Below, piece by piece: positions 5,900 through 47,343 of a stretch of 47,343 nt of DNA (position 1 is the stretch's first letter; each line of letters begins with the position of its first letter). The notes under the pieces were generated by a model. It worked only from the letters and a program-made list of their open reading frames with translations, had not been told where the DNA came from and ran no database searches. The position numbers and the translations under genes were made by a program. This DNA is from an uncultured Candidatus Saccharibacteria bacterium (lineage in GTDB: Bacteria; Patescibacteriota; Minisyncoccia; UBA6257; 2-01-FULL-56-20), in assembly GCA_964374065.1 (NCBI GenBank), contig CAYJWW010000004.1, positions 1 to 47,343 of the forward strand, in the 5' to 3' direction.

Positions 5900-5928
5900 T
5901 TGACAGGGCATGCGTTTTCGCCTAAGAT
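5900..5928 (+). promoter_or_regulatory. sigma70-like promoter for the rplC-led operon (TTGACA-17-TAAGAT)
   Basis: TTGACA at 5900-5905, a 17-nt spacer, TAAGAT at 5923-5928. Confidence 0.45.
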
Positions 5929-5993
5929 ACGGCTGTCGCTTTAATGGACGCTCACGCTTTCATATAGGGCGTTTCCACAAGGACGGACCGGAT

Positions 5994-6026
5994 CGCCCGG
6001 GCTGAGCCTTGGGCGGTTTTATTTTT
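5994..6026 (+). promoter_or_regulatory. GC hairpin plus U-tract in the rplC leader, ending 3 nt before the ATG (attenuator-like)
   Basis: CGCCC(5994-5998)...GGGCG(6011-6015) with an internal GGC/GCC stem, then GTTTTATTTTT. The rplC ATG is at 6030. Confidence 0.4.
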
Positions 6027-6029
6027 CAC

Positions 6030-6572
6030 ATGCCAGGCGCACTCGCCCGAAAAGTCAAAATGAGCCAGATCTGGGAAGGCAATGTGGTCCACCCGGTCAC
6101 GGTGCTTCGCGTTCCCGAAAACAAAGTTGTTTTGGTGCGCACGAAAGATCGCGACGGCTACGAAGCGGTGCAGATCGCGGCGCTGAAGACGAAGAGAGAG
6201 TTCCGCGGGGCATCTGGCGCAAAGCCGGGGGATACGGTGGATATCGCTCTTTTTAAGAGCGGAGATCGCGTGCGGGTGAGCGGCATTGCGAAGGGGAGAG
6301 GATTCCAAGGAGTCGTAAAGCGGCACGGATTCGGCGGAGGGCCCAAGACACACGGGCAAAAGAATCGTCTTCGCGCACCGGGCTCCATCGGCAGTACGGC
6401 GCCGCAGCGGGTTCACCCCGGCAGAAAAATGGCCGGGCGAATGGGAGGAAATCGAGTGACAGTGAAGAATCTCATCATCGTGAAAGTCGATCCGGAAACG
6501 CGAGAGCTTTTTGTGCGGGGGGCGGTTCCGGGACCGCGCGGTTCGCTGCTCGAAGTCGTAACGCAATCGTAA
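6030..6572 (+). CDS. rplC: 50S ribosomal protein L3
   Basis: MPGALARKVKMSQIWEG aligns to the L3 N-terminus (M.GL.GKK.GMTRIF). A GGGPKTHGQ-like motif is present. The track ORF starts 7 codons upstream. Confidence 0.93.
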   Translation: MPGALARKVKMSQIWEGNVVHPVTVLRVPENKVVLVRTKDRDGYEAVQIAALKTKREFRGASGAKPGDTVDIALFKSGDRVRVSGIAKGRGFQGVVKRHGFGGGPKTHGQKNRLRAPGSIGSTAPQRVHPGRKMAGRMGGNRVTVKNLIIVKVDPETRELFVRGAVPGPRGSLLEVVTQS

Positions 6573-6579
6573 ACAACAC

Positions 6580-7215
6580 ATGAAGGCAGCGCTCCAGAAT
6601 TGGAAAGGAGAAACAACCGGCGAGATCGAAATCCCGAAGGAGGTGTTCGGGGCGCCTTGGAGGCCCGCGCTCGTGCAGCAGGCGCTTTTGGCGCAGCTCG
6701 CGAATCGGAGAGACCCGATCGCGCACGCAAAGACGAGAGGAGAAGTCCGAGGCGGCGGCAAGAAGCCGTGGCGGCAAAAAGGCACCGGCCGAGCCCGCCA
6801 CGGTTCCATACGTTCGCCGCTCTGGGTGGGCGGCGGGAAGGCGCACGGGCCGAGCTCCCTGCGGGACTACGGGCAGAAACTCAACAAAAAAATGAGGTAC
6901 CGCGCGCTCACCTCAATCCTTTCAAAAAAGTTCGGGGAAGGACAGGTCCGTATTTTCGATACCCTGGAAACGGATTCGTGGAAAACAAAGCAGCTATGGC
7001 ATTCGCTCCATGCCGCATTAAAGACGGAGAAGGGCCGGAAAAGGATGGACGTGCTTCTCGTGCCTCGGGCGGAAAGCAAGAATTTGTTTCGGGCAGGGGC
7101 GAATTTGGAAAAAACTAAAGTACTTTCTCCGGAATCGCTGAATGTATACGATCTTTTGAATCATCGGTATGTGTGCATCGACCAGCGATCAATCCCCGCA
7201 CTGATTCGAAAATGA
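6580..7215 (+). CDS. rplD: 50S ribosomal protein L4
   Basis: 211 aa. ...GGGKKPWRQKGTGRARHGS...LWVGGGKAHGP is L4. Confidence 0.95.
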   Translation: MKAALQNWKGETTGEIEIPKEVFGAPWRPALVQQALLAQLANRRDPIAHAKTRGEVRGGGKKPWRQKGTGRARHGSIRSPLWVGGGKAHGPSSLRDYGQKLNKKMRYRALTSILSKKFGEGQVRIFDTLETDSWKTKQLWHSLHAALKTEKGRKRMDVLLVPRAESKNLFRAGANLEKTKVLSPESLNVYDLLNHRYVCIDQRSIPALIRK

Positions 7216-18642: not shown

Positions 18643-19295
18643 AGCCGATGATAGAAGTATTCCCCGTAATCAATTGTCCGGATCTGGAGTGTGTCATCAA
18701 AGAGCTCCATCAGTTCGAGAAATTTGCGACGTGGGTTCATTTGGACGTTGCGGACGGCAAGTTTACGTTCCACAAGACATGGAACGAACCTTCGCTATGG
18801 CCGGACCTCAAAAGCAGATTGTCGCTCGAGGTTCATTGCATGGTGGATGATCCCGAGACGCATGCCGCGGCTTGGCTCAAAGCCGGAGCGAAACGCGTGA
18901 TTGTGCATCACGAGGTTCTTTCCGCCGCTTCTGCCGGAAGGATCTTGGATGCGGCGCGAAAGAAGGGGGCGGCGGCGATGATCGCGATAAATCCGGAAAC
19001 GCCCGCAGAGCGGCTCCGTCCGTACTTCAAAGAGTGGCGGGCGTTCCAAGTGCTCTCCGTTCACCCGGGCCTTGCGGGACAGAACTTTCTCCCGCTTGTC
19101 GTGCCGAAGATTTCGTTTTTGCGCCGCGAGATGCCCGATGCGATAATCGAAGTCGACGGGGGTATGAACGAAAAAACCGCACGCCTCGTGCGGGAGGCGG
19201 GAGCAAACGTCATAACTTCTTCCAAGTATGTTCTCGAATCACCCGACTCGCGCAAGGCGTACGACGAATTGCGGAAGGCGCTTGCGCGCGCATGA
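18639..19295 (+). CDS. rpe: ribulose-phosphate 3-epimerase
   Basis: HLDVADGKF...SVHPGLAGQNF...VDGGMN are Rpe TIM-barrel motifs. ATGA overlap with rpiB. Confidence 0.85.
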   Translation: MKPMIEVFPVINCPDLECVIKELHQFEKFATWVHLDVADGKFTFHKTWNEPSLWPDLKSRLSLEVHCMVDDPETHAAAWLKAGAKRVIVHHEVLSAASAGRILDAARKKGAAAMIAINPETPAERLRPYFKEWRAFQVLSVHPGLAGQNFLPLVVPKISFLRREMPDAIIEVDGGMNEKTARLVREAGANVITSSKYVLESPDSRKAYDELRKALARA

Positions 19296-20158
19296 TCATG
19301 GAACCGTTGCACGAAAAAAAACTGCAATTCATCGAGGAGATGGCGAACCGGCTGCGCCGGGACGTGATCGAAATGGTGAAGACAGCCGGTTCCGGCCATA
19401 TCGCCGGACCGTTGGATATGGCGGATATTTTCGCCTCCCTCTATTTTCACGTATTGCAGCATGATCCCAAGAAGCCGGATTGGCCCGACCGCGACCGGGT
19501 CGTGCTCTCAAACGGGCACATTTGCCCCATCCTCTATGCAACGCTCGCCCGCGCGGGATATTTCCCGGTCGAAGAGCTGAAGACGCTTCGGAAGTTCGGC
19601 TCCCGCCTTCAGGGGCATCCGGAGCGAAATGCGCTTCCGGGAGTGGAGACCACCTCCGGGCCTTTGGGCTCCGGCCTTTCGCAGGCGTGCGGCATGGCTC
19701 TTGCCGCGCGGCTTGACGGAAAGAAACGCCGAATCTATTGTCTTATGTCCGATGCGGAGCATCAGGAAGGGAACCTATGGGAGGCGGCGATGTTCGCGGG
19801 GAAGTACCGGCTGAACAACGTGACCGCCGTTATAGACAGGAACAATATCCAAATCGACGGGTTCACCGAGAATGTAATGCCGCTCGAGCCCTTGCGTCAG
19901 AAATATGAAGCGTTCAATTGGCATGTGCTCGAAGTCGATGGGCACAGCCCGGCGGATTTTGTTGCCGCTGTCGCCGAAGCGCACGCGATTTACGAAAAGC
20001 CGACCGCGATCATCGCGCATACGATCGCGGGCAAGGGAGTGAAGTTCATAGAGCGGGATTATCTGTGGCACTCGAAGCCCTTCAAGCCCGGAGAAGCGGA
20101 AAAGGCGCTTGCGGAACTCCGTACGCTTCAGGGGAAGATCGAATCAGAACACCAATAA
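19292..20158 (+). CDS. transketolase, N-terminal (TPP-binding) subunit
   Basis: Internal ATG at 19292 overlaps the rpe stop. ...GSGHIAGPLDMADIF...LSNGH...RLQGHPE...SGPLGSGL are N-terminal transketolase motifs. The track ORF upstream part is out-of-context. Confidence 0.88.
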   Translation: MIMEPLHEKKLQFIEEMANRLRRDVIEMVKTAGSGHIAGPLDMADIFASLYFHVLQHDPKKPDWPDRDRVVLSNGHICPILYATLARAGYFPVEELKTLRKFGSRLQGHPERNALPGVETTSGPLGSGLSQACGMALAARLDGKKRRIYCLMSDAEHQEGNLWEAAMFAGKYRLNNVTAVIDRNNIQIDGFTENVMPLEPLRQKYEAFNWHVLEVDGHSPADFVAAVAEAHAIYEKPTAIIAHTIAGKGVKFIERDYLWHSKPFKPGEAEKALAELRTLQGKIESEHQ

Positions 20159-20195
20159 GTCGAGAAAAAAAGTGAATGGAAGGTCAATAGAAACG

Positions 20196-21155
20196 ATGAC
20201 AGACCAACCGCCCGCACAGGCACCAGCGCAAGCCCCGAAAAGTTCCCCGAAGGACGTCTTTCTCCACCTCTTTGCCATCGGCGCGCTCTATTTTTGCGCG
20301 GGGAGCATTATTGCGCTCGCGTTCTACTATATTGAGGCGGCATTTCCGGATCCGCTGGAATATTCATACCGTCCCGAGAGCCGCATCCGTTGGTCGCTCG
20401 CGCTCTTAACCGTGGTTTTCCCGGCCTATCTGTGGGTTTCCCGTTTTCTCTTTAAGGATCGAGCGGCGAGTCCGGAAAAGAACGAGCTTCGCGTCAGGAA
20501 ATGGCTGGCGTATCTTACGCTGTTCCTCGCCGCGCTTCTCATCATCGGCGACCTTGTTGCGCTTCTCTACAACTTCCTTGAAGGCGAGCTCACCTCGCGA
20601 TTCCTCCTAAAGGTGCTCGCGGTATTCGCGGTGGCGCTTACGGTGTTCTCCTATTACCTCTACGATCTTCGCCGCGGCGCGCAGCCGTTCTCTCCGCGGG
20701 CGCGGTGGGGCATCCGCGCCGCGACCGTTGCGGTATGTATCGTGATCGTCTTCGGATTTATAAGCGCTGGTTCGCCGTTTACACAGCGACTGATCCGCTT
20801 CGACGATCGAAGGGTGAGCGATTTGAGCGAGCTTCAAAGCCGGATCGTGAACTATTGGCGGCAGAAGGGGATGCTTCCGACATCCCTCGATGATCTGAAA
20901 GACAGCATTTCCGGATTTACGCCGCCTGCGGATCCGGAGACGAAGGTTCCGTACGGATATCGCCGCACCGGTGAACTTTCGTTCGAACTGTGCGCCGTGT
21001 TCAATCTGCCCATGGAAGGCGGAAGCGAGCGAGCCCCCGTATACTACGGCGGCTTGAGCGGCAATTGGGAGCACGGATCCGGAATGACATGCTTCTCGCG
21101 CGCGATCGACCCCGAACTGTACGGTTTGCCCGAGAAACCGATGTCGCTGCCGTAA
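20196..21155 (+). CDS. hypothetical integral membrane protein (4-5 TM at the N-terminus plus a Cys-containing C-terminal domain), inserted between the two transketolase subunit genes
   Basis: 319 aa from the ATG at 20196 (the track ORF starts at 20109, overlapping the tkt-N end). Hydrophobic helices at the N-terminus. No recognisable catalytic motif. Confidence 0.55.
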   Translation: MTDQPPAQAPAQAPKSSPKDVFLHLFAIGALYFCAGSIIALAFYYIEAAFPDPLEYSYRPESRIRWSLALLTVVFPAYLWVSRFLFKDRAASPEKNELRVRKWLAYLTLFLAALLIIGDLVALLYNFLEGELTSRFLLKVLAVFAVALTVFSYYLYDLRRGAQPFSPRARWGIRAATVAVCIVIVFGFISAGSPFTQRLIRFDDRRVSDLSELQSRIVNYWRQKGMLPTSLDDLKDSISGFTPPADPETKVPYGYRRTGELSFELCAVFNLPMEGGSERAPVYYGGLSGNWEHGSGMTCFSRAIDPELYGLPEKPMSLP

Positions 21156-21194
21156 CGGCGGGAGAGTCCGTTGTGGTAGACTGAACGCATATCA

Positions 21195-22187
21195 ATGCCG
21201 CTCGTACCGGAAGCAAAACTGTCGGATAAGCTTTTTGCCGGAGATGTCGAAGAGCGCCCCACGCGCGACGGCTACGGTGAAGGGCTGGTTCAGGCCGGAG
21301 AGGAAAATCCGAACGTTGTGGCGCTGTGCGCCGATCTTGTCGAATCCACCCGCGCCGAAGCGTTCGCGAAAAAGTTTCCCGACCGGTTTTTCGAATGCGG
21401 CGTGGCGGAGCAGAATATGGCGACCGTGGCTGCGGGCTTGGGCATCTCGGGAAAGATCCCGTTCATTTCCTCATATGCGAACTTTTCGCCCGGCAGGAGC
21501 TGGGAGCAGGTGAGAACCACGATCTGCGTCAACGATTCCAACGTGAAAGTAGCCGGGCACCATGCGGGAATTTCCGTGGGACCAGATGGCGCGACGCACC
21601 AGGCGACCGAAGACATCGCCATCATGCGCGTCCTGCCGAACATGAAGGTTGTGGTGCCGTGCGATGCGGTGGAAGCGCGGAAGGCGACGGTTGCGGCGGC
21701 CCGCATCTGGGGGCCGGTGTATCTTCGTTTCGCCCGCGAGAAATCGCCGGTTATGACGACCGCAGAAACTCCGTTTACGCCGGGGAAGGCGGAAGTGTTT
21801 TGGAGGTCGCCGAAACCGGGGGTATTGCTCGTGGGGTGCGGACCGGTCCTCCACCAAGCGCTTCTTGCGGCTCGTGAATTGGAGAAGGAAAAAATCGGCA
21901 GCGTGGTTTTGAATTGCCATACGGTAAAACCAATAGACGAGGAAACCGTTTCCATGTGGGCCGGGAAAGCCGGCGCCGTAGTTTCCGTGGAAGAGCATCA
22001 AATTTTTGGAGGCCTAGGAGGGGCGTTAGCCGAGCTTCTTGCCTCGGTGAATCCGATGCCCGTCGAGTTCGTCGGTCTTCGGGACACGTACGGGAAGTCG
22101 GGCCCGCCCGCGGTGCTTGCGGCGGCATTCGGCATGACCGCGAAGGAAATCGTCCGTGCGGCAAAGAAGGCGATCAGGAGAAAGTAA
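21195..22187 (+). CDS. transketolase, C-terminal (pyrimidine-binding/C-terminal domain) subunit
   Basis: ...FFECGVAEQNM...GPDGATHQATEDIAIMRVLPNM... matches the transketolase central and C-terminal domains. Confidence 0.88.
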   Translation: MPLVPEAKLSDKLFAGDVEERPTRDGYGEGLVQAGEENPNVVALCADLVESTRAEAFAKKFPDRFFECGVAEQNMATVAAGLGISGKIPFISSYANFSPGRSWEQVRTTICVNDSNVKVAGHHAGISVGPDGATHQATEDIAIMRVLPNMKVVVPCDAVEARKATVAAARIWGPVYLRFAREKSPVMTTAETPFTPGKAEVFWRSPKPGVLLVGCGPVLHQALLAARELEKEKIGSVVLNCHTVKPIDEETVSMWAGKAGAVVSVEEHQIFGGLGGALAELLASVNPMPVEFVGLRDTYGKSGPPAVLAAAFGMTAKEIVRAAKKAIRRK

Positions 22188-31743: not shown

Positions 31744-34584
31744 ATGAAGTATCACTTCCGTCAAATAGAGCAGAAGTGGCAGAAAAGATGGCTTGAAGAA
31801 AAGTCGTTTCAGGCGCGCGAAGATTCGGGAAAGCCGAAGTACTACCAGCTTGAGACGTTTCCGTATCCTTCCGCCGAAGGACTGCATGTGGGGCACCCGA
31901 AGGGATATATCGCCGAAGACATTCACGCGCGTTATATGCGCATGAACGGCCGCGAAGTGCTCTACACGATGGGGTGGGATGCGTTCGGTCTCCCTACGGA
32001 AAACTACGCCTTAAAAATAGGAAAGACACCGAACGAGGTTGCCAAAGCGAATGTGGCAAACTTTAAGCGACAAGTGCGCATGTTCGGGCTTTCGTACGAC
32101 TGGGACCGCGAGATCAACACTTCAACCCCCGAGTATTACAAGTGGACCCAGTGGCTTTTTATCCAATTTTTCAAGAAAGGCCTTGCGTATCAAGCGAGTG
32201 CGAACGTAAATTGGTGCCCGAACTGCGAAACGGTGCTCGCGAACGAGCAGGTGGAAGGCGGCGCGTGCTGGCGCTGCAACACCCCCGTCGTGCAGAAGCA
32301 GATGGAGCAGTGGTTCTTGAAGATCACCGACTACGCAGAGCGCCTTCAGGCCGACCTCAAGGGGCTCGATTGGCCGGAGGCGACGATCAAACGCCAAAGA
32401 GATTGGATAGGAAAATCAGAGGGAGCCCTTCTTGAGTTCCCGATTCAAGATTCAAGTTTCAGGGTTCGGGTATTCACCACGCGGCCGGACACGCTTTTCG
32501 GCGCGACGTTCATGGTCTTGGCGCCCGAGCATCCCTTAATCGAAAATTTGAAATTGAAAATTGAAAATTGGGGCGAAATCCAGAAGTACATCGAACAAGC
32601 GCGGCATAAAACCGAGCTTATGCGGAAGGAGGAACGGGAGAAAACGGGATTGGAGCTCAAGGGGGTCAAAGCGATGAATCCGGCCACGAAAGAAGAGATT
32701 CCTATTTTCATCGCCGATTACGTGCTCATGGGCTACGGCACGGGAGCGGTCATGGGCGTGCCCGCGCACGACGAGCGGGACTACGAGTTCGCGAAAAGGC
32801 ATGAGCTCCCGATGCGGACCGTCGTAGAGCCCCTCTATACACAAAGCAGGGAGCCGGGAAAGATCGCGGAGGGAGTGCCGTTTGATGAACGCGATGCCAT
32901 CATTGCGATCGTGAAGCACTGGTCCGAGGAGAAGTATATGGCGCTTAAGTGGAAGAAAGTCGCGTGGGGAACCTTCCTCACGGGCGGCGTTGAGAAAGGT
33001 CAGACGGCGGAAGAGGCGGCCAAGGCGGAGATCAAGGAAGAAACGGGGTACCTCAATCCCGCGCTCGTGAAGGATTTCGGCATCATTCATGGTAAATTTT
33101 ACCACGTCCCGAAGAACGTGAACCGGTTCGCTCATGCCCGCGTGCTTTATTTTGAACTGCGCGATGATGCGCAAGGGGATATCTCGGACGAGGAGCGGCA
33201 GATTCACGAGATATTGTGGCTCTCGACCGAAGAACTCGCGAAATTTCTGACCCCCGATACCCACCAGCATGCGTTGCGGATGTTTCTCGGCACGCAGGGA
33301 GCGTATGAGGGCGAAGGGGTTTTGACGAACTCCGGCGAGTTCAACGGAATGGACACCGGAACAGGGAGGTGGGAGATTGCGAAATTCGTCGGCGGCGCGC
33401 GGAGAATCCAATATAAAATCCGCGATTGGTCCGTCTCGCGGCAGCGGTACTGGGGCGTGCCGATCCCGATGATCCACTGCGCGACCTGCGGCGCGGTTCC
33501 GGTGCCCGAGAGCGACCTCCCGGTGCTTCTTCCCAAAGATGTGGATTATCGTCCGAAGGGCAAGCCGCCGCTTGCGAGCTCGGAAAAATTCATGAACGTG
33601 AAGTGTCCGAAATGCGGCGGCGAAGCGCGCCGGGATCCGGAGACGCTCGATACGTTCGTTGATTCTTCTTGGTATTACCTGCGCTACACGGATCCGAAGA
33701 ACGAAAAGGAGATCTTCAATAAGGATAGCGCGGCCCACTGGCTGCCGGTTGACCTTTACGTGATCGGCGCGGAGCATACCGTGCTCCATCTGCTGTATTC
33801 CCGGTTTATCACGAAATTCTTGTACGACGAAGGATACGTGAGTTTCACGGAGCCGTTCACAACGCTTCGGCATCAAGGGCTCGTGTTGGGCGCGGACGGG
33901 CAGAAGATGTCCAAATCGAAGGGAAACGTGGTGAACCCCGACGACCTTATCGCGGAGTTCGGGGCGGATACCGTGCGCCTTTATGAGATGTTCATGGGGC
34001 CCTTCGAGAACGGCCAGCCGTGGGATCCGCAGGGAGTTTTGGGCACGCACCGGTTCCTCCATCGTTTTTGGAGTTTTATGAGAGAGCGGATCTCGAGTTC
34101 TGATTTCGCGAGTGCGGAGACGCCGCGAATTCAGCGGGCCGCGGTTCATAAGGGTATCAAGAAAGTGGGGGAGGATATCGCCGGCTTCAAATTCAACACG
34201 GCCGTTTCGTCTTTGATGATACTTTTAAACGAGCTGGAAGGAGCGGCGATCGGGAAAAGAGACGTCGAAGCGGTGCTAAAGCTCCTGCATCCGTTCGCGC
34301 CGCATGTCGCTCAAGAACTCTGGGAAATGGCCGGGTACAATACCATTCTCGATTTCGAAGCGTGGCCGGCGCATGATCCGGACCTTATCGTCAAAGCGAC
34401 ATTCCGGCTCGTCATTCAGATAAACGGAAAAGTCCGCGATACTGTCGAAGCGCCCGCGGGCGTTTCCGAGGAGGAAGCCGCACGCCTCTCGCTTCAAAGT
34501 GCGCGTGTGACGCGCGCACTGGGAGGGATAAAGCCCCGCAAGGTGATTTACGTCAAAGATCGCCTTATCAACTTTGTTCTGTGA
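31744..34584 (+). CDS. leuS: leucine--tRNA ligase carrying an inserted Nudix-fold domain after the CP1 editing domain
   Basis: HVGH, TTRPDTLFGATF, GTGAVMGVPAHDERDYEFA, NSGEFNG, RDWSVSRQRYWGVPIP and KMSKSKGN are in LeuRS order. 946 aa, with ~155 extra aa between EFA and NSGEFNG. Confidence 0.93.
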   Translation: MKYHFRQIEQKWQKRWLEEKSFQAREDSGKPKYYQLETFPYPSAEGLHVGHPKGYIAEDIHARYMRMNGREVLYTMGWDAFGLPTENYALKIGKTPNEVAKANVANFKRQVRMFGLSYDWDREINTSTPEYYKWTQWLFIQFFKKGLAYQASANVNWCPNCETVLANEQVEGGACWRCNTPVVQKQMEQWFLKITDYAERLQADLKGLDWPEATIKRQRDWIGKSEGALLEFPIQDSSFRVRVFTTRPDTLFGATFMVLAPEHPLIENLKLKIENWGEIQKYIEQARHKTELMRKEEREKTGLELKGVKAMNPATKEEIPIFIADYVLMGYGTGAVMGVPAHDERDYEFAKRHELPMRTVVEPLYTQSREPGKIAEGVPFDERDAIIAIVKHWSEEKYMALKWKKVAWGTFLTGGVEKGQTAEEAAKAEIKEETGYLNPALVKDFGIIHGKFYHVPKNVNRFAHARVLYFELRDDAQGDISDEERQIHEILWLSTEELAKFLTPDTHQHALRMFLGTQGAYEGEGVLTNSGEFNGMDTGTGRWEIAKFVGGARRIQYKIRDWSVSRQRYWGVPIPMIHCATCGAVPVPESDLPVLLPKDVDYRPKGKPPLASSEKFMNVKCPKCGGEARRDPETLDTFVDSSWYYLRYTDPKNEKEIFNKDSAAHWLPVDLYVIGAEHTVLHLLYSRFITKFLYDEGYVSFTEPFTTLRHQGLVLGADGQKMSKSKGNVVNPDDLIAEFGADTVRLYEMFMGPFENGQPWDPQGVLGTHRFLHRFWSFMRERISSSDFASAETPRIQRAAVHKGIKKVGEDIAGFKFNTAVSSLMILLNELEGAAIGKRDVEAVLKLLHPFAPHVAQELWEMAGYNTILDFEAWPAHDPDLIVKATFRLVIQINGKVRDTVEAPAGVSEEEAARLSLQSARVTRALGGIKPRKVIYVKDRLINFVL

Positions 34585-39828: not shown

Positions 39829-40704
39829 TTATGAATGGCTCTTGCCTCGCAAGTGTTCGGAGAGCGACTTGACGCCTTCGAAGAATTCCACGGGCAACGC
39901 GAAAATCACCGTTTTTGAGGGATCGGGGTTGATCTTTTCGATCGTCTGGAGCGTCCGCATCGCGATGCCGCCCGGGGCTCCGGAGAGCACCTGCGCCGCC
40001 TGCGCCAGACGTTCGGCTGCCGCGTATTCTCCCTCCGCCCGAATGATCACCGCGCGGCGCTCGCGTTCGGATTCCGCCTGCTTCGCCATGATGCGCTTCA
40101 TGTCGGCCGGGAGTTCGATGTCTTGGATCTTCACGTCCGTTACGTTTATCCCCCAGGTCTTTGTCGCTTCGTCCACGATTTTTTTGATCTCCTGCGCGAT
40201 CTTCTCGCGCTCGGAAAGCAGGGGGTCGAGTTCGATGCCGCCGATCACGTCGCGGAGCGCCGCCTGCGCGTACTGGGATACCGCGACCGTGAAGTTCTTG
40301 ATATTCAGTATCGCGGCCTCAGCCGTCTCGACGTTGAAGTAAACGACTGCGTTGATGCCGACGGGGACGTTGTCCTTCGTGATCACTTCCTGCTGGGGAA
40401 TGTCCACGGTCGTGATGCGGAGGTCCACTTTGATCATCCGCTGGACGCCGATCAGGACCCACGTGAGGCCGGGACCGCGCGTGCCGGTGTATTTGCCGAG
40501 CGTGAGCACCACGCCCCGTTCGAATTGGTCCACGATCCGGAGCCCGCCGATGACGAGAAAGACGACTACAAGGCCCAGAATCCATATGAGCACCGAGGAT
40601 CCGGAGATCAAACCTGCCTGCGTGAGGAACCAAACGACCGCGCCCGCGAATATGAACAAACTGATAAACGAACTCGCCGGATTACCGGAAGGTTTTTGGT
40701 TCAT
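39829..40704 (-). CDS. SPFH/band-7 (stomatin/prohibitin-like) membrane protein
   Basis: 292 aa from the ATG at 40704. N-terminal TM, then an SPFH domain and a coiled-coil/Ala-rich tail. The track ORF upstream part overlaps the tRNA-Arg. Confidence 0.8.
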   Translation of the reverse strand: MNQKPSGNPASSFISLFIFAGAVVWFLTQAGLISGSSVLIWILGLVVVFLVIGGLRIVDQFERGVVLTLGKYTGTRGPGLTWVLIGVQRMIKVDLRITTVDIPQQEVITKDNVPVGINAVVYFNVETAEAAILNIKNFTVAVSQYAQAALRDVIGGIELDPLLSEREKIAQEIKKIVDEATKTWGINVTDVKIQDIELPADMKRIMAKQAESERERRAVIIRAEGEYAAAERLAQAAQVLSGAPGGIAMRTLQTIEKINPDPSKTVIFALPVEFFEGVKSLSEHLRGKSHS

Positions 40705-40932
40705 AGGGAAATTATAGCATATCTCTACGCCCCGTATCGGAAGCAACCTCGAATCGAGTGCGCCCCCGGAGGGAAGCTCACAGCGACCGCGATAGCGGTC
40801 TCTTTTAAAACCCTCGGTTTTTAACCCGTTCGCTTTCGCGAACTCTTTCCAACACGGAGGGAGCCCGGCGGCTCTCCCTCCGGCCCACCCTTCGTTCGAT
40901 TCCCTCCTTCGCGCGCAAAAACTCGGCTTTTG

Positions 40933-41004
40933 CGCCCTCGGAGGGAATCGAACCCCCATTTCATCCTTAGGACGGATTCGTTCTGTCCATTGAACTACGA
41001 GGGC
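40933..41004 (-). tRNA. tRNA-Arg (anticodon CCT)
   Basis: Reverse complement gives GCCCTCG-TA-GTTCAATGGACAGAAC-G-AATCC-GTCCTAA-GGATG-AAAT-GGGGGTTCGATTCCCTC-CGAGGGC-G. Perfect acceptor stem. CCA is not encoded. Confidence 0.85.
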
Positions 41005-41070: not shown

Positions 41071-41331
41071 ATGCATTTTTTCGGCAATGAGCTGTGGTCG
41101 TGGGGGATGCCGTTCGGCATTTCGCCGTGGTTCGGCGGGTCGTTTTTCGCGCTCCTTATTCTGTGGTCCTTGGCTTGGAAGGGGGCGGCGCTCTGGAGAG
41201 CGGCGCGGGAGGGAAGCAAGGGCTGGTTTGCCGCTATCCTTATCACGAACACCTTGGGTGTCCTGGAGATCCTTTATCTCTACGCGTTTAGCAGGAAGGC
41301 GGAGCCGGTCGCGAAAGAAAATAGTCAATAG
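41071..41331 (+). CDS. hypothetical small membrane protein (2 TM, Trp-rich)
   Basis: 86 aa with two hydrophobic helices (FFALLILWSLAW / WFAAILITNTLGVLEILYLYAF). Confidence 0.45.
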   Translation: MHFFGNELWSWGMPFGISPWFGGSFFALLILWSLAWKGAALWRAAREGSKGWFAAILITNTLGVLEILYLYAFSRKAEPVAKENSQ

Positions 41332-42228: not shown

Positions 42229-42729
42229 ATGAACAAAAATATGTGGGTGCTCGTGGCGGTGGCTCTCGCGATAGTCCTTATTGCGCTTATAGTTGCCAAT
42301 CAGTGGAGTTCCAGCCCGACTGTTCCGACCGCTTCGCGCCCGAACGGGGCCGCGCCTGCCGGGCAGGAGCAGGAGGGGACCTCTACTCCGCCGAGTGCAG
42401 GCGCGGTTAATGAGATCCTTGTGGAAAGCCAAGGGCCGGCCTCTTCGGTCAGGGTGGCTTTTGTTTCATTACTGGAGAACGGTTTTGTGGTGGTTCACGA
42501 AGAGACGGACGGAATCCCCGGTGCCATACTCGGCGTTTCCGGGTTTGTTCGCGCCGGAGCCAACAAAGACATCTCTGTGTCGCTTTCTCGGTCATCGAAA
42601 TCCGGCGAAAAACTTCTTGCGATCCTTCACGGTGATGATGGCAATGAGCGGTTTGACGAGAGGAAGGACGAGGCGATAAAAGTTGCGGGAGGCGGGCTTG
42701 TGGTGTTCCCGTTCACGATTGGAAAATAG
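42229..42729 (+). CDS. hypothetical secreted/membrane-anchored protein
   Basis: 166 aa with an N-terminal hydrophobic anchor (WVLVAVALAIVLIALIV) and a beta-rich C-terminal region. No recognisable motif. Confidence 0.5.
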   Translation: MNKNMWVLVAVALAIVLIALIVANQWSSSPTVPTASRPNGAAPAGQEQEGTSTPPSAGAVNEILVESQGPASSVRVAFVSLLENGFVVVHEETDGIPGAILGVSGFVRAGANKDISVSLSRSSKSGEKLLAILHGDDGNERFDERKDEAIKVAGGGLVVFPFTIGK

Positions 42730-42744: not shown

Positions 42745-42784
42745 AAACATGAAACGCTCCGCACATGCGGAGCGTTTCATGTTT
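42745..42784. terminator. 40-nt near-perfect palindrome (19-bp stem, 2-nt loop; AAACATGAAACGCTCCGCA ca TGCGGAGCGTTTCATGTTT) between convergent genes; bidirectional terminator
   Basis: The arms at 42745-42763 and 42766-42784 are exact reverse complements. A-tract on one side and T-tract on the other. Overlaps the last codons of the minus-strand sortase gene. Confidence 0.65.
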
Positions 42785-43469
42785 GAGAGCGGTACTGTAT
42801 GTCCTGGATACCAATAAGCGATGCTCGGATCACCGTTCGTTTCGAAGCGCCTCCGATCGGATAGCACGTGATAAGATTTAGTTCGTGCTCGGCGGACTGA
42901 ACGGCGAGCGCTTTATTCGTATCGGCGGGAGTGAGGATGTCGTTTGTAAGGACGCGGTAATGGTATTTCTTTCCTCCGCCGATAATATAGATTTCATCCC
43001 CCGGTTCCAGTTTCCCGAGCAGCGAGAAGACCGTGGCGTAACCGCCGCGATACCAGCTTGCGCGGGAGCTGTGTCCCAGCGCGATGAGGCGTCCGTTATC
43101 TCCCGCAGGAACTGATCCGGGGTATATGCCCACTCCTTCTTCGAGACTCGCAAGAATCGCTTGCTTGCTGTGGTCGCGCGGGACTACGAGCGGCGTCTCT
43201 ACTTCGATCCTAGGAATAAGGAGCGTGTACGGTTTCTCTCCCGCGGCAAGCCCGACCGACTGAGGTTTCCCGGCCGCGGCTTCTTGGACTTCAAGCAGAT
43301 TTCCGATCCGGAGCTCCTGACTCGCGAACGGCGACGAGAGAAACACTTGATAGCGGATCTCGCGCCAATAGGCGCCGCCGTTCAGAAAAAAGTAAACAAG
43401 GGAGCTTGTGCCGAAGAAGAGGATCAGGAAGAGATTGATCTTCCGAAATGTGCGGAGCGGGATCGGCAT
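42777..43469 (-). CDS. sortase-family transpeptidase
   Basis: 231 aa from the ATG at 43469. N-terminal TM, LIALGHSS (His) and LNLITCYP (TLxTC catalytic Cys) motifs. Confidence 0.75.
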   Translation of the reverse strand: MPIPLRTFRKINLFLILFFGTSSLVYFFLNGGAYWREIRYQVFLSSPFASQELRIGNLLEVQEAAAGKPQSVGLAAGEKPYTLLIPRIEVETPLVVPRDHSKQAILASLEEGVGIYPGSVPAGDNGRLIALGHSSRASWYRGGYATVFSLLGKLEPGDEIYIIGGGKKYHYRVLTNDILTPADTNKALAVQSAEHELNLITCYPIGGASKRTVIRASLIGIQDIQYRSQT

Positions 43470-43470
43470 G

Positions 43471-44523
43471 TTATACGCCCGAGGGGGGCGCCGAGAATGC
43501 CGCAGGAGTAATCTCGGCCACGGGAATATCCCCTGTGGGCGCCGCAAGAATATATCCGAAGACAACGAGGACGAGGAGCGTCCGAATGGCAACCGGCTGC
43601 GTTATTTTCCCCGTGCGGAAAGCGAGAAACGCAAGCGCGACCCCGATGAGCGCCAATACTCCGGCAGCCGCGCTTTGCGCGAGCGGTTCCGCGATTCCGA
43701 TGAGCTTTGTTCGGGCAAGGCGCATGCGCCGTGCCGTTTGTGTCGCCGCCGTCGCCACCGATGTCGTTTCCGCCCCTGCGGAGGCTTCGATCGCGGCGCG
43801 TGAGGTCGGTGCGGTTCCAATGCTCGATGTGCGCAGGGATGGGATGGCTGATGCTGAAGTCGCCTGGACTATTGGCGCAGGCCGCGTGAGCGGAGCAGGC
43901 TTGGGAGGTGCAGATTCCGACGCATTGGCTCGGGCGATCGCTTGGGTTGCCGCCCGGGGACGCCCAAAGAATTGGACGACAAGGATCGCAGGCCTTCCTT
44001 CAAAATCTCCCTGAGTCACCGCAACGCCCAATTCCGTATAGGCTCGGCCAAGGATATTTGCTCGGTGCGAAGCGGAATTCATGAACCCATCATGCGCTTC
44101 CTGGGCGGTAGAATAATCGAGCGCAAGATTTTCGCCCGCGGCGGCGTACCGATAATTCCTCGCGCTCAAGAAATCCCACGGAGTTTTCGCCTGGGGCGAA
44201 ATATGCGCGAAATACCGGTTGGCGAGCATGTCCGCCGCCTTGTCTACGGCAACTTGATCGAGCACGACGCTCGTTTTGAGCGGGGGGAGCCCGGCCGCGC
44301 CGCGCGATTTATTCACAAGTTGGATGATGTCGCTCGAGCTGAAAACAAGAGGAGCCGTGAGCGTGGCAAGTTGGAGATTGCGGAGATAGATCGGAGAGAG
44401 GACCGTGATTGCTGCGATAAAGAGGTAAACGACAAAAGACTGCGGCGACAAAAGCCACGGCGTCATTCCGTTTACGGGAGTCGGAGTAAAGAGATTCTCG
44501 AACGCCGTGCGAATTCTATCCAT
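43471..44523 (-). CDS. CAP/SCP/PR-1-like domain protein with N- and C-terminal hydrophobic segments
   Basis: ...GENLA...HDGFMNSASHRANILG..YTELGVA matches CAP-domain signature motifs. An Ala/Thr/Ser-rich linker follows, then a C-terminal TM. The stop abuts the sortase start (1-nt gap). Confidence 0.7.
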   Translation of the reverse strand: MDRIRTAFENLFTPTPVNGMTPWLLSPQSFVVYLFIAAITVLSPIYLRNLQLATLTAPLVFSSSDIIQLVNKSRGAAGLPPLKTSVVLDQVAVDKAADMLANRYFAHISPQAKTPWDFLSARNYRYAAAGENLALDYSTAQEAHDGFMNSASHRANILGRAYTELGVAVTQGDFEGRPAILVVQFFGRPRAATQAIARANASESAPPKPAPLTRPAPIVQATSASAIPSLRTSSIGTAPTSRAAIEASAGAETTSVATAATQTARRMRLARTKLIGIAEPLAQSAAAGVLALIGVALAFLAFRTGKITQPVAIRTLLVLVVFGYILAAPTGDIPVAEITPAAFSAPPSGV

Positions 44524-44552
44524 GCGGGTGTTCGGGAGAATGGCTCCCGGTG

Positions 44553-47343
44553 CTATGGGCGTTTGGTTCCGGATTCGGTATCGGGCAGTGTTTCATCCCT
44601 CCGGATTGCGGCGAGCGTCCGATTGAATTGGGTTTCCGGATCCGGACCGAGGCCGCCCACCAGGCCGTACTTGAAGATGATGAAATATGAAGCGATCGAG
44701 CTCACGAAGCCGATGAGGAAGATCCACGGGAGCGCGTCTTCGGGTCCGGTCACGATATCCGCGACGCCCAAGACTTGCCCGCGAGGCCGGACGTTCACCG
44801 TTGCGAATGCGTTTGACACGCCCGCATTCATAGTAGCACTTATCTGGTTCGTGGTAGTGCGCGGCGTCGTCCCCGTAAGCACGGTCGCGCGGAAGCGGAT
44901 CGCCTTTTCTTCATTCGAAGCGACGGTTCCCAAGGAAAGCCCCGAGGCGGCGATGCCGTCAGGAGCCACGTTGTTGTTTATCGTCGTCGAACCGGGGACG
45001 TATGAGAGTTCCTGCGGGAGAATATCCCGAACGATGATCTGGCCGGCGGATGTGTCGGTGTTCCGCACGCGGATCTCGAACTCAACGGTATCTCCGCCCT
45101 GTGCCTCGATCGAGTTCGAATACGCGGTTTGGTTCAATGTCCGGTTCAATCCGGCTTTCGTGATAAGAAGTCTGGCGGGCGTCCCAACGGTCGTAGTCAC
45201 GAACACCGTTTCCGAGTCATTCGCTACGCCGTTTTGATTTGAGCAGGTGATGCTATAGGTGGTGGTGAGGCTCGGAGAGGTCTGTTCCGACCCCGAGAGC
45301 GCTTTAGACCCGGACCATCCGCCCGATGCGGTGCACTGAGCTGCGTTCGCAGACGTCCATGTGAGTATCGAGGATTGCCCCTGCGCAATGCTCGAAGGCG
45401 AAGTCGCGAGATTCACCGTCGGCTGGAACGCGCTCACGAACACCGTTGCTTGCGCGGAGACGGAGCCTCCGGAGCCGCTGCAATTCATGGAATATGTCGT
45501 TGTCTGCGCGGGGAACACGGTTTCGTTGCCGGAGACGTTTCGTGATCCAGACCAGCCGCCGGAGGCGGTGCAGGAAGTCGTGTTCGTCGAAGTCCATGTA
45601 AGGATCGACGAGCCGCCCTGCGAGATACTTGTCGGATTCGCGTTCAGCGTAAGCGTCGGCTGATTCTGAACCACGCTCACCGTGACGGTGGCGTTCGCCT
45701 GCACCTGCTGGCCGGTCTGGTTCTGGCAGACGATGGTATAGGCGGTCGTTGAAAAGGGATTTATCGTTTCGCTGCCGGATAGATTTTTCGTTCCGGACCA
45801 GCCGCCCGCCGCGCTGCAGGTCGTGGCGTTCGTCGAGCTCCACGTCAAGACCGAGGATTGTCCCTGGGTGATCGTGGTCGGACTTGCGGCGAGCGTGACC
45901 GTCGGAGCCGGCGGTTGATTGACGTTAATGGTTACCGAATCGGTCCCGCTGCCTCCCGCACCGGCGCACTGAACCGTATAGGTCCGCGAAGAGGTGAGCG
46001 CCCCGGTCGATTGCGAGCCGGACGTACCCGTGAATCCCGAGGGGAATACGGTGCACGAGGTCGCATTTTGCGAAGTCCACGTGAGCGTTGCCGACGCATT
46101 GTGGTCGATATTTACGGGGCCATCGGAGCCGTTCGCTTTGATGTCCGCCGTCACCTGGGGAACATTTCCCACGTTCACGACGACCGAGTCCGTCGCTGTT
46201 CCGCCCTGCCCGCTGCAATTGAGGAAATATGTTTGCGAGAACGTCAGATTCCCCGTCGACTGCGACCCCGAGGCGCCCGTCCACCCGGTGGGCGAGACGC
46301 TGCAGGTCGTGGCGTTCGTGGAGGTCCATGTGATCGTGGCGAAAGCGTTGAAATTGATGGTTATCGGACCATCTTGGTTGTTCGCTTTGATGTCAGCCGT
46401 CACCTGTGGGGCATTGCTTACATTTACCGTCACCGAATCGGTAGCCGAACCGCCCGGGCCGTTGCAGGTCAGGGTGTACGTTTGCGAGCTTGCGAGATTC
46501 CCCGTGGACTGCGAACCGGAAGTACCCGTCCAGCCGGTGGGCGAGACGCTGCAGGTGGTCGCGTTCTGCGAGGTCCAGCTTATCGTCGCCGAAGAGTTGA
46601 AGGTGACGGTCACGGGGCCGTCCTGGCCATTGGCTTTGATATCGGCGGTTACATTTCCTGCCTGCACGTTTATCGTCACCGAGTCAGTCGCGTTACCGCC
46701 CGGGCCGGTGCAATTTACCGTATAGGTCTGCGAGTTTGTGAGATTTCCAGTAGACTGCGAGCCGCTCGTACCCGACCAGCTGCCTGGAGTGACCATGCAC
46801 GAAGTCGCGTTCTGCGAGGTCCACGAGATGGTCGCGGATTGCCCCGACTGGATCGTGACGGGCCCGTCCTGGCCGTTCGCCTTGATGTCGGCGGTTATAT
46901 TGCCCGCCTGCACGTTTACCGTCACCGAGTCAGTCGCGTTACCGCCCGGACCAGTGCAGTTCAAGGTGTATGTCTGTGAACTTGTGAGGCCTCCGGTCGA
47001 CTGCGAGCCCGATGTGCCTGACCAGCCGGTCGGCGAGACGGAACACGATGTCGCGTTCGAGGAGATCCAGCTTATGGTCGCTGAAGTCCCCGATTGAATC
47101 GTGATCGGCCCGTCTTGCCCATTCGCCTTAATGTCGGCAGTTACGTTCCCTGCCTGAATATTCACCGTTACCGAATCCACCGCCGACCCTCCTGGGCCGC
47201 TGCAGTTTAAGGTGTACGTTTGCGATGCCGTGAGGTTCCCCGTGGACTGCGAACCGCTCGTGCCCGTCCACCCGGTGGGCGAGACGGAGCACGAAGTCGC
47301 GTTCTGCGAGGTCCACGAGATGGTCGCGGATTGCCCCGACTGG
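44553..47343 (-). CDS. giant repetitive surface protein (5' end beyond window): five or more ~82-aa Ig-like repeats, three ~80-aa variant repeats, a DUF11/'conserved repeat domain', and a C-terminal TM
   Basis: The reading frame stays open to the window edge; the track ORF starts at an internal GTG at 47180. Repeats share ...ATISWTSQNATSCxVSPTGWSGTSGSQSTGNLTSSQTYTLNCTGPGG. GDTVEFEIRVRNTDTSAGQIIVRDILPQELSYVPGST is DUF11-like. A TM helix sits near the C-terminus. Confidence 0.75.
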   Translation of the reverse strand, partial: QSGQSATISWTSQNATSCSVSPTGWTGTSGSQSTGNLTASQTYTLNCSGPGGSAVDSVTVNIQAGNVTADIKANGQDGPITIQSGTSATISWISSNATSCSVSPTGWSGTSGSQSTGGLTSSQTYTLNCTGPGGNATDSVTVNVQAGNITADIKANGQDGPVTIQSGQSATISWTSQNATSCMVTPGSWSGTSGSQSTGNLTNSQTYTVNCTGPGGNATDSVTINVQAGNVTADIKANGQDGPVTVTFNSSATISWTSQNATTCSVSPTGWTGTSGSQSTGNLASSQTYTLTCNGPGGSATDSVTVNVSNAPQVTADIKANNQDGPITINFNAFATITWTSTNATTCSVSPTGWTGASGSQSTGNLTFSQTYFLNCSGQGGTATDSVVVNVGNVPQVTADIKANGSDGPVNIDHNASATLTWTSQNATSCTVFPSGFTGTSGSQSTGALTSSRTYTVQCAGAGGSGTDSVTINVNQPPAPTVTLAASPTTITQGQSSVLTWSSTNATTCSAAGGWSGTKNLSGSETINPFSTTAYTIVCQNQTGQQVQANATVTVSVVQNQPTLTLNANPTSISQGGSSILTWTSTNTTSCTASGGWSGSRNVSGNETVFPAQTTTYSMNCSGSGGSVSAQATVFVSAFQPTVNLATSPSSIAQGQSSILTWTSANAAQCTASGGWSGSKALSGSEQTSPSLTTTYSITCSNQNGVANDSETVFVTTTVGTPARLLITKAGLNRTLNQTAYSNSIEAQGGDTVEFEIRVRNTDTSAGQIIVRDILPQELSYVPGSTTINNNVAPDGIAASGLSLGTVASNEEKAIRFRATVLTGTTPRTTTNQISATMNAGVSNAFATVNVRPRGQVLGVADIVTGPEDALPWIFLIGFVSSIASYFIIFKYGLVGGLGPDPETQFNRTLAAIRRDETLPDTESGTKRP
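45180..47343 (-). repeat. in-frame tandem coding repeats, period 246 nt (type A) and ~240 nt (type B)
   Basis: Example: 46798-46851 and 47290-47343 are 54/54 identical (two periods apart). Repeated protein motifs are listed in the CDS entry. Confidence 0.85.

Follow-up and report, generated by a model that had tools for sequence, protein, structure and literature searches.

A conserved gene trio of Patescibacteria encoding a probable sortase substrate, a CAP-domain membrane protein and a sortase

The gene cassette and its products

The window, by which we mean the whole stretch of 47,343 nucleotides analyzed, comes from an uncultivated ultrasmall bacterium of the Patescibacteria/CPR with Paceibacteria-like affinity, and the segment bearing the cassette is core chromosome. 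Three genes run in the same direction on the minus strand, in the order giant surface protein, CAP-domain protein and sortase, as an earlier note on this DNA had described. The giant gene is separated from the CAP gene by 29 nt, and the CAP stop codon from the sortase ATG by 1 nt; no promoter-like site was found in either gap. The features are located as follows.

44553..>47343, minus strand: giant surface protein gene, the candidate substrate (ORF and translation; 929 codons plus stop visible, 5'-truncated at the window edge)
45192..47342, minus strand: nine tandem beta-sandwich repeats (repeat alignment, TRF period, AF2, Foldseek)
44787..45170, minus strand: membrane-proximal DUF11/CLIPPER domain (TIGR01451, PF01345, AF2)
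44736..44759, minus strand: putative non-canonical sorting motif D-I-V-T-G-P-E-D (conservation in homologues)
44745..44750, minus strand: predicted scissile bond T865/G866 (invariance of TG)
44673..44735, minus strand: hydrophobic stop-transfer TM segment ALPWIFLIGFVSSIASYFIIF of the giant protein (sequence, AF2 helix)
44580..44627, minus strand: conserved helix FNRTLAAIRRDETLPD in the long cytoplasmic tail of the giant protein (homologues, AF2)
43471..44523, minus strand: CAP-domain membrane protein gene, 350 aa, three TM (PF00188; architecture in 18 orthologues)
44470..44490, minus strand: CAP protein, cytoplasmic N-terminal motif F-x-P-T-x-x-N
44383..44436, minus strand: CAP protein, TM1
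43993..44322, minus strand: CAP domain (PF00188)
43618..43671, minus strand: CAP protein, TM2
43540..43587, minus strand: CAP protein, TM3
43495..43515, minus strand: CAP protein, C-terminal ITP motif
42777..43469, minus strand: sortase gene, 230 aa (PF04203, homologue alignment)
43383..43439, minus strand: sortase N-terminal TM
43320..43334, minus strand: sortase conserved SPFAS
42816..43220, minus strand: sortase catalytic domain (PF04203)
43071..43073, minus strand: sortase His133 (invariant in 31 homologues)
42864..42866, minus strand: sortase Cys202 (invariant in 31 homologues)
42837..42839, minus strand: sortase Arg211 (invariant in 31 homologues)

The giant protein exceeds 929 aa and its N-terminus lies beyond the window end; full-length homologues measure 230–1379 aa and begin with a signal peptide. 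The earlier note had counted at least eight Ig-like repeats of about 82 aa. Nine units were found, of two subtypes rather than one: type A has six units of 82–83 aa, the first of them interrupted where the window ends, and type B has three, of 79–82 aa. Type A carries the signature ADIKANGxDGP...ISWTS.NATSC...Y.L.C, and the repeat DNA has a period of 246 nt (TRF). In the repeat alignment each unit has two conserved Cys residues, and every type-A repeat a conserved Lys. One type-B repeat was modelled by AF2 as all-beta (pLDDT 81–93), and Foldseek found the model to resemble tandem Ig-like or macroglobulin-type sandwiches, so that "Ig-like" is apt only as a general term for a beta-sandwich. The repeats gave no Pfam and no PDB sequence match.

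A DUF11 domain and a C-terminal TM segment, both noticed earlier, are present. The domain matches TIGR01451 (E 2.9e-11, 43.2 bits vs a cutoff of 24) and is modelled with a pLDDT of about 90. PF01345 was reached with the C-terminal 215 aa alone (E 3.9e-8, 34 bits vs a cutoff of 24.6); a Pfam scan of the full-length ORF returned nothing, PF01345 included. CLIPPER domains contain a Lys-Asp-Asn isopeptide triad (PMC12617251). K729, D773 and N832 are candidates for such a triad and are spaced similarly to Lys715, Asp748 and Asn806 of 9IFR; K, D and N are kept in A3.

The CAP protein matches PF00188 (E 8.6e-14, 52.8 bits vs a cutoff of 21.1) and the SCP domain of PDB 4ifa (6e-18). All 18 orthologues compared share its cleft residues H107, E131 and H153. 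The YkwD model TIGR02909 gave E 3e-32 and 111.2 bits, under its cutoff of 171, and the DalA model NF052539 gave E 7.6e-9 and 35.6 bits, far under its cutoff of 200. Both ends of the protein had been described as hydrophobic. The N-terminal TM was indeed found, and the C-terminal end proved to hold two TM segments, not one (hydrophobic segments at residues 30–47, 285–302 and 313–328). This architecture of three TM segments, CAP domain and Pro/Thr/Ala-rich linker is kept in the 18 orthologues. An orthologue, L015, carries a PG_binding_1 insert.

The sortase ORF was called from a TTG at 43592, which would make it overlap the CAP gene. Since the alignment with 31 homologues begins at the ATG at 43469 (MPIPL...), we consider the sortase to be 230 aa long and to start 1 nt after the CAP stop. 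It belongs to the sortase superfamily (PF04203/MEROPS C60) by domain score, fold and triad alike: it scores 68.9 bits with PF04203 (E 4.3e-19, cutoff 26.6) and 51.8 bits with TIGR01076 (cutoff 39.35), its AF2 model has a pLDDT of 84, and His133 (LGHSS), Cys202 (LITCYP) and Arg211 are invariant across the 31 homologues. The first two motifs are those pointed out in the earlier note. No class-specific NCBIfam cutoff (classes A–F and GN models) was reached; scores were 55.4 vs 140 for the SrtD exception model, 51.9 vs 165 for class D, 51.1 vs 160 for class C, 36.2 vs 160 for class E, 31.1 vs 166 for class F and 28.7 vs 158 for class GN. In Foldseek, class A, C, D and E structures were matched almost equally (E 1e-11 to 1e-13), with E values for solved sortases going down to 9e-14, and the top PDB sequence matches were pilus-specific class C enzymes (5k9a at 2.8e-14, 2xwg and 24rr).

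The sorting signal and the C-terminal tail

The giant protein ends in ...DIVTGPED, the segment ALPWIFLIGFVSSIASYFIIF and a 39-aa tail. The predicted T/G cleavage point falls within GVADIVTGPEDA, with a conserved GQVLG ahead of the motif and the TM starting 4 residues past TG. AF2 models this linker as disordered and exposed (pLDDT <50). The consensus of the signal is G-x-VLG-x-x-[DST]-[IV]-x-T-G, with a TM segment behind it. The DIVTG-type motif is kept in all close homologues, and 30 cassette-adjacent proteins carry G-x-VLG-x3-[IV]-x-TG ahead of a TM. A profile search with the signal found only 88 proteins at E<=0.001 among 1.84 billion representatives; about 70 of them match as one stretch, and each such stretch lies at most ~130 residues from the C-terminus. 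When 53 cluster representatives of these proteins were compared, the sole invariant columns were T and G. The residues ahead of TG vary with the sortase clade, DIVTGPE being paired with TCYP, [IV]KTG with SCWP and LPETG with TCTP. Within +/-10 kb of the loci there is no further ORF with a TG signal, and the neighbouring TM-anchored surface proteins in cassette loci have no TG.

Neither LPXTG nor a class-variant pentapeptide (Pro or Ala at position 2) is present in the giant protein, which retains T-G alone, and the curated sorting-signal models gave no match to it at E<=1. From its sequence, the giant protein appears to be the substrate of a sortase, with a signal that departs from the standard one. 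This is what had been suspected earlier of VTGPED, which contains, just ahead of the TM, the T-G invariant in the 53 representatives. We found no description of this TG signal in the literature searched.

The tail is also unusual. It contains Lys and Arg and, instead of forming a short basic stub, spans 39 aa with a conserved helix. AF2 places helices at residues 240–261 (TM) and 272–288 (tail) of a 299-aa C-terminal model, and the tail-helix consensus h-h-x-x-[IL]-R-x-x-E-x-x-P-D is shared by about 14 of the 17 close homologues. Homologues extend 36–105 aa beyond TG. Classical sorting signals have no long tail or conserved tail helix, so that the tail gives a hint of some additional or other role.

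Conservation of the trio across genomes

The order substrate-CAP-sortase was found in 17 of 19 GTDB species representatives reached via the sortase, and a search from the CAP side, independent of the sortase, placed a sortase directly downstream of CAP in 13 of 13 close orthologues and in 28 of 41 full-length family members; these counts are not fully independent, because the two sets share contigs (e.g., L002 = L023 and L015 = L029). No gene family other than those of the DUF11 protein, CAP and sortase is conserved across the sortase-found loci. Searching from the substrate side led to the P0121 locus, which has the same trio. More diverged Patescibacteria have two other orders, CAP followed by an SCWP-type sortase and the substrate, or an LPETG substrate followed by a TCTP-type sortase and CAP.

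The earlier note had named two findings that would speak against its reading, a sortase-like ORF lacking the Cys/His/Arg triad and homologous loci in which the genes are never together. With the synteny strongly kept and the triad present, neither was encountered. Its remark that the CAP-sortase pairing was undescribed agrees with the literature searched, where we found no description of it for any sortase system. The association has exceptions. No adjacent sortase was found for 13 of the 41 full-length CAP family members, so CAP is not strictly a sortase cofactor; some of these CAP genes adjoin surface proteins ending in PG_binding_1. Conversely, a sortase lies close to more distant DUF11-xxTGP proteins where no CAP gene was called in the vicinity.

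Proposed function and relation to known systems

We propose that the trio is probably a dedicated sortase-substrate system of Patescibacteria (CPR), in which the sortase anchors the large repeat protein to the wall with CAP as an accessory. An SLT_2 lytic transglycosylase encoded within the window indicates that a cell wall exists. The giant protein would be exported through Sec, as the signal peptides of full-length homologues suggest, and would be retained in the membrane by its C-terminal TM segment, which is evident in the sequence. The N-terminally anchored sortase would then recognize the exposed linker ...GQVLG-VA-D-I-V-T/G-PED and, judging from the sortase mechanism and the invariance of TG, cut the Thr865-Gly866 bond, forming a thioester. 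Transfer to an amine of a peptidoglycan precursor may follow; it is in this sense that we infer covalent anchoring. The product would be a stalk of disulfide-bearing beta-sandwich repeats atop a wall-proximal DUF11/CLIPPER domain. The weakest step concerns the co-translated three-TM CAP protein, whose most likely role is that of an accessory factor at the wall, where it may act as a peptidoglycan-associated scaffold positioning sortase, substrate or acceptor. The PG_binding_1 insert of L015 and the peptidoglycan binding of the CAP-family protein DalA speak for such a link to the wall.

It is quite unlikely that the giant protein stays unprocessed, as a type-I protein held by its C-terminal TM with a tail of its own function, while the sortase acts elsewhere or otherwise. 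Its long and conserved cytoplasmic tail is atypical of sortase substrates, it has no LPXTG and no match to the curated signal models, and other surface proteins of cassette loci are held by a TM alone. However, TG ahead of the TM is invariant in 53 diverged representatives in which all else varies, and the motif covaries with the sortase clade. Strict adjacency is preserved through changes of gene order, and no second TG-signal ORF lies within 10 kb on either side of any locus. Another possibility, also unlikely, is that the nucleophile is a protein instead of peptidoglycan, giving either a pilus-like polymer or a substrate joined covalently to the extracellular part of CAP as a membrane-bound base. 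The class C sequence matches point this way, as do the SPFAS between TM and catalytic domain, which could be lid-like, the extracellular ITP motif and long exposed linker of CAP, and the conserved Lys of the type-A repeats. In a sortase-assembled pilus locus one expects more than one pilin gene, a Lys within the pilin motif and a class C sortase whose lid bears DP[FWY]. Here the class C model gave 51 bits vs a cutoff of 160 and Foldseek scores were near equal for class C, D, A and E structures. Each cassette has one substrate gene, whose product varies widely in size (230–1379 aa), with no minor or basal pilin genes and no identified pilin-motif Lys. The pilus-like polymerization suggested in the earlier note finds no support in this single-substrate layout.

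The same note had taken CAP for a second candidate substrate, since its gene lies immediately upstream of the sortase and its C-terminal segments are hydrophobic. We rejected this reading, which appears extremely improbable: CAP is a polytopic protein with an N-terminal TM and two C-terminal TM segments in a hairpin, and it has no conserved TG signal. Its sole TG, in an RTG loop of some orthologues, varies (RTG, RLG, RSA, KMK...) and is predicted to be cytoplasmic, and the identical architecture is also found with no sortase neighbour. A more ambitious role for CAP is conceivable, and we offer it tentatively. It might be an obligatory third component of Patescibacteria-specific sorting, capturing the TM and cytoplasmic tail of the substrate via F-x-P-T-x-x-N and the TM hairpin and binding peptidoglycan by its CAP ectodomain. 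In this way it would offer the [IV]-x-TG linker for cleavage by the sortase and select the acceptor. If true, this would be the first mechanistic role of the bacterial CAP/SCP fold in surface-protein anchoring.

A life attached to host cells is assumed for CPR/Patescibacteria, and to our knowledge the building and decoration of their envelope is largely uncharacterized; the giant protein family provides candidate adhesins for host attachment. We know of no CPR sortase with defined substrates, signals or partners. Sortases are enriched in CPR (PMC6744442). The cassette provides a testable signal, G-x-VLG-x3-[IV]-x-T/G, that standard LPXTG predictors would miss, and a sortase of new specificity could serve protein ligation. 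Bacterial CAP proteins have, as far as we know, almost no assigned function, and the conserved genomic partnership of a CAP/SCP/PR-1 domain protein with a transpeptidase is thus one of few functional leads.

Dedicated sortase-substrate pairs include class B SrtB with IsdC, the "marine" or class GN enzymes (TIGR03784) with a single vWFA target, and class D/E enzymes with neighbouring substrates. As in these pairs, the gene of a membrane-anchored His/Cys/Arg Cys transpeptidase adjoins that of an apparent single substrate, whose C-terminus consists of a short motif, then a hydrophobic stretch, then a charged tail, and the motif departs from LPXTG by clade. Unlike in these pairs, the motif is [DST]-[IV]-x-T-G with G-x-VLG ahead and Ile/Val where Pro (Ala in class E) stands at position 2, the tail is long with a conserved helix, a CAP membrane protein is the third conserved gene of the unit, and the sortase reaches no class-specific NCBIfam cutoff. 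The giant protein family also resembles the DUF11/CLIPPER fibrillar adhesins in having a signal peptide, tandem beta-sandwich stalk repeats, a CLIPPER domain bearing the Lys-Asp-Asn signature residues and a C-terminal sorting region (PMC12617251). It differs in that its stalk repeats match no Pfam family, its single CLIPPER domain lies immediately before the sorting signal, and that signal is non-canonical.

The SipA/LepA-like protein of Streptococcus pyogenes is required for pilus polymerization (PMC4049620). Like SipA, the CAP protein is neither sortase nor substrate, and it is encoded within a sortase operon and membrane-anchored with an extracytoplasmic domain; it has a CAP/SCP/PR-1 fold and three TM segments where SipA has a signal-peptidase fold, and the role of SipA was shown by experiment whereas that of CAP is deduced. 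DalA of Rhodobacter sphaeroides, a CAP-family protein, binds peptidoglycan, and L,D-transpeptidases co-precipitate with it (PMC10470522). DalA comes from a diderm and is a lipoprotein of the outer membrane, whereas the cassette protein comes from a CPR bacterium and has three TM segments and a putative peptidoglycan role. Both have a CAP domain, and just as DalA partners Cys-dependent L,D-transpeptidases, the CAP gene here adjoins the gene of a Cys transpeptidase.

A three-gene sortase cassette and its surroundings

The cassette is a conserved Patescibacteria sortase unit with a non-canonical [IV]-x-TG sorting signal and a CAP-domain membrane partner. It consists of three minus-strand ORFs arranged head to tail, and the earlier description of co-directional genes for a DUF11 protein, a CAP protein and a sortase is confirmed. 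The cassette genes and their neighbours are as follows:

window edge to stop at 44553, minus strand: giant-protein ORF, 929 codons visible, 5' end outside the window
43471..44523, minus strand: CAP gene, 350 aa (PF00188, E 8.6e-14)
start ATG at 43469, minus strand: sortase gene (PF04203, E 4.3e-19)
42229..42729, plus strand: DUF7282 secreted protein, cassette neighbour, convergent with the sortase gene
41071..41331, plus strand: small DUF5652 membrane protein, cassette neighbour
39829..40959, minus strand: SPFH/Band 7 protein, cassette neighbour

The sortase start is placed at ATG 43469 and not at TTG 43592, on the ground that the alignment with 31 homologues begins at MPIPL. With this start, a single nucleotide separates the CAP stop codon from the sortase ATG (TAAcATG), and 29 nt lie between the giant gene and the CAP gene. 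A promoter scan returned no promoter-like sites, and terminator-like sites did not exceed the level of shuffled sequence. The 5.3-kb Logan contig of the sortase locus also stops within the giant gene, and NCBI has a 56,468-nt contig that encodes exactly this sortase.

Core chromosomal genes of a CPR bacterium fill the remainder of the window, encoding EF-G, EF-Tu, ribosomal proteins, SecY, glycolytic and pentose-phosphate enzymes, DUF5671 and DUF5652 proteins, aminoacyl-tRNA synthetases, three tRNAs and an SLT_2 lytic transglycosylase. Relatives nearest to the sortase carry the names Liptonbacteria, Wolfebacteria, Paceibacterota and Patescibacteria, among others. None of the DUF7282, DUF5652 and SPFH/Band 7 genes is kept beside the cassette in other genomes.

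Elsewhere in the window, the leucyl-tRNA synthetase (31744..34584, plus strand, 946 aa) matches a NUDIX domain over residues 403-505 (E 1.6e-11); the domain seems to be an insertion behind the editing domain. Transketolase is split into two genes (18872..22187, plus strand), an N-terminal part at 18872-20158 and a Pyr/C-terminal part at 21195-22187, with a DUF5671 membrane-protein ORF (20109-21155) between them.

The sortase, the giant protein and its proposed sorting signal

As far as sequence can tell, the sortase is a real enzyme. Its putative catalytic residues H133, C202 and R211 are unchanged across 31 homologues (41-62% identity); the His and Cys motifs had been noticed earlier. By domain, fold and triad the protein belongs to the sortase superfamily. 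Its AF2 model (pLDDT 84) resembles known class C, A, D and E structures with near-equal significance, and a profile search of PDB sequences placed class C pilus sortases on top (2.8e-14), with a marginal lead. No class-specific NCBIfam model came near its cutoff (best 55 bits versus 140); assignment to class C, D or E was rejected on these cutoffs, and the sortase therefore stands outside every defined class. Pilus-like polymerisation, proposed in the earlier note as one way in which the enzyme might act differently, is not supported. Two features mark the clade, an insertion behind the catalytic His (SWYRGxYATVF) and a conserved segment that might be lid-like by analogy with class C sortases:

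SPFAS at 43320..43334, minus strand: end of the conserved juxtamembrane segment LNGGAYWR.LRY.LFL.SPFAS, between the sortase TM segment and a variable linker in the sortase alignment

In the giant protein, nine units repeat in tandem; six are 82-83 aa long and three are 79-82 aa long. Every unit has two conserved Cys, and the gene shows a 246-nt repeat period in its DNA. Behind the repeats lies a DUF11 domain (TIGR01451, E 2.9e-11; PF01345, 3.9e-8, only with the C-terminal 215 aa). The Pfam scan of the full-length protein was empty, DUF11 being seen only by TIGR01451 and the sub-sequence scan, and a PDB sequence search gave no match. Searching a protein database with the C-terminus returned only proteins of at most 520 aa, many of which matched the repeats alone; full-length homologues measure 230-1379 aa and have signal peptides. 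AF2 (pLDDT 79) models both the repeat and the DUF11 domain as all-beta. The earlier label of Ig-like repeats holds only in a broad sense, because the Foldseek matches are generic tandem Ig-like sandwiches (integrin legs, macroglobulins, pilins, titin). Recent work describes DUF11 as CLIPPER, an isopeptide domain whose triad is Lys-Asp-Asn (PMC12617251), and K729, D773 and N832 of the giant protein, conserved and compatibly spaced, are a candidate triad of this kind.

The C-terminus of the giant protein reads ...RGQVLGVADIVTGPED-ALPWIFLIGFVSSIASYFIIF, followed by 39 residues. This tail after the TM segment is unusually long, and about 14 of 17 close homologues have a conserved helix at its end, h-h-x-x-[IL]-R-x-x-E-x-x-P-D. 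Substrates of an AT-rich clade have a different conserved tail, YCR[IV]RE[ED]K[LI]LE. The two features of this region are:

peptide across the predicted T|G site of the giant protein: RGQVLGVADIVTGPEDAL
44580..44627, minus strand: conserved tail helix, also present in the homologues at loci L002-L018

The earlier suspicion of a non-standard sorting signal is supported: the probable signal is [IV]-x-TG, and the first two positions of LPXTG are not matched in the giant protein. All close homologues end in G-x-VLG-x-x-[DST]-[IV]-x-T-G-[PAS]-[ED]-[DNS]-x-x-P-W and a TM segment, and the core common to 30 cassette-adjacent proteins is G-x-VLG-x3-[IV]-x-TG with a hydrophobic segment behind it. A 51-column profile of this signal, run against 1.84 billion representative proteins, gave 88 matches at E<=0.001, about 70 of them as a single stretch, and every single-stretch match falls in the last 130 or so residues of its protein. 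When 53 of these proteins were aligned, T and G were the sole invariant columns, and in the GxVLG before them the four named residues were almost invariant. Their N-terminal passengers vary (fn3, PKD, PhoD_N-like, BiPBP_C and the unclassified repeats of the window), and the DUF11 domain beside the signal is mostly retained.

Residues before TG differ by sortase clade: D-I-V-TG-P-E is paired with TCYP sortases, [TS]-[IV]-K-TG with SCWP sortases and L-P-E-TG with TCTP sortases. Such covariation is the pattern expected of an enzyme and its substrate. In addition, TG is absent from the other TM-anchored surface proteins of the loci, and in the AF2 model DIVTG is part of a disordered stretch that joins the DUF11 domain to the TM helix. 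From conservation, we infer that DIVTG is a non-canonical sortase recognition site, with cleavage predicted between T865 and G866. More distant CPR DUF11 proteins have related x-x-TG-P/A signals with sortases nearby and without an annotated CAP protein.

The CAP protein and its linkage to the sortase

The CAP protein matches TIGR02909 (YkwD) at 3e-32, below cutoff, and 18 orthologues have one architecture in common. The N-terminus is short and cytoplasmic and bears the motif F-x-P-[TS]-x-x-N-x-x-x-P; it leads into TM1 and the CAP domain, in which H107, E131 and H153 are invariant. Behind the CAP domain follow a spacer that is rich in Pro/Thr/Ala and varies between orthologues, then TM2, a basic loop, TM3 and a short external I-T-P tail. 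The earlier note had counted this protein as a second candidate substrate. That role is rejected, since no TG signal is conserved among the 18 orthologues; with this and pilus-like polymerisation set aside, the earlier interpretation was largely right.

The synteny of the three genes was examined from three sides. In the sortase-side scan (one genome per GTDB species), 17 of 19 loci keep a DUF11-C-terminus protein, CAP and sortase in this order and orientation; CAP is missing at L018, and at L020, where sortase identity is only 33%, neither CAP nor the DUF11 protein is present. Clustering of all neighbouring ORFs left the three cassette families as the only ones common to the loci. With the whole CAP protein as query, a protein database gave only 19 matches, dominated by low-complexity words, and a locus-derived alignment was used instead to scan metagenomes. 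This CAP-side scan gave 80 loci (64 with at least 700 nt downstream of the CAP gene), some of them on the same contigs as sortase-scan loci (e.g. L002 = L023, L015 = L029), and a sortase lies directly 3' of CAP in every one of the 13 close orthologues (290 bits or more), in 28 of 41 proteins with the full three-TM architecture and in 32 of the 64 loci overall. From the substrate side, locus P0121 again reads substrate, CAP, sortase. As the chance adjacency of two given genes is inferred to be about 0.2% in a genome of about 1000 genes, the linkage is far above chance.

The CAP-sortase pairing outlasts changes of gene order. In AT-rich Patescibacteria, CAP is followed by a sortase whose active site reads SCWP and then by a DUF11 protein of 700-1200 aa; other loci have an LPETG protein (PKD/TSP1 domains), a TCTP-type sortase and then CAP.

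Extra secreted repeat proteins with a plain C-terminal TM anchor and no TG occur near the cassette at L002 (5593-7578), L010 (10682-12676), L004 (2781-4169, minus strand) and L007 (1535-2980, minus strand), some TG-less proteins lying directly 3' of the sortase. L101, a 650-kb contig of distant Patescibacteria, has a multi-substrate variant at 84-6981: V-D/S/E-TGPGE signals occur in three or four DUF11/CLIPPER proteins that surround one sortase, and no CAP gene was called within 6 kb on either side.

Some CAP proteins offer clues to their role. The orthologue of a Sungbacteria locus (L015) carries a PG_binding_1 domain within its spacer (E 1.9e-7). Sortase-less members stand beside large surface proteins ending in PG_binding_1 (L064 2921-5854; L090 7300-11247), one of which has SpaA-like domains, or adjoin dTDP-rhamnose biosynthesis-like genes (L053 and L078, ~5.9-10 kb). 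The sortase-less members suggest a general envelope or surface-protein role for the three-TM CAP family. The only functionally studied bacterial CAP relative that we found is DalA, a peptidoglycan-binding protein that co-precipitates with L,D-transpeptidases and is a proposed transpeptidase scaffold (PMC10470522). The most economical reading, and the least secure part of our account, is that the CAP protein may be a wall-associated scaffold or adaptor acting with surface-protein attachment. In this lineage, the scaffold would be tied to a sortase.

Comparison with described sortase systems

In the open-access literature we found only the general statement that a sortase family is enriched in CPR (PMC6744442), and a search of this scope does not prove newness. 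The comparative signal is strong; the mechanism is conventional in its known part, and its novel part, the CAP role, is inferential. The signal of the giant protein keeps the T-G and the hydrophobic segment of an LPXTG signal. Its tail has basic residues but is long, with a conserved helix at its end, whereas classical sortase substrates have short basic tails. The cassette would operate in the manner of dedicated sortase-substrate pairs, as in Gram-positive bacteria and the 'marine' sortase system. Among sortase loci described in the open-access literature we found no counterpart of the CAP-domain partner; its nearest analogue is an operon-encoded accessory protein such as SipA of S. pyogenes (PMC4049620).
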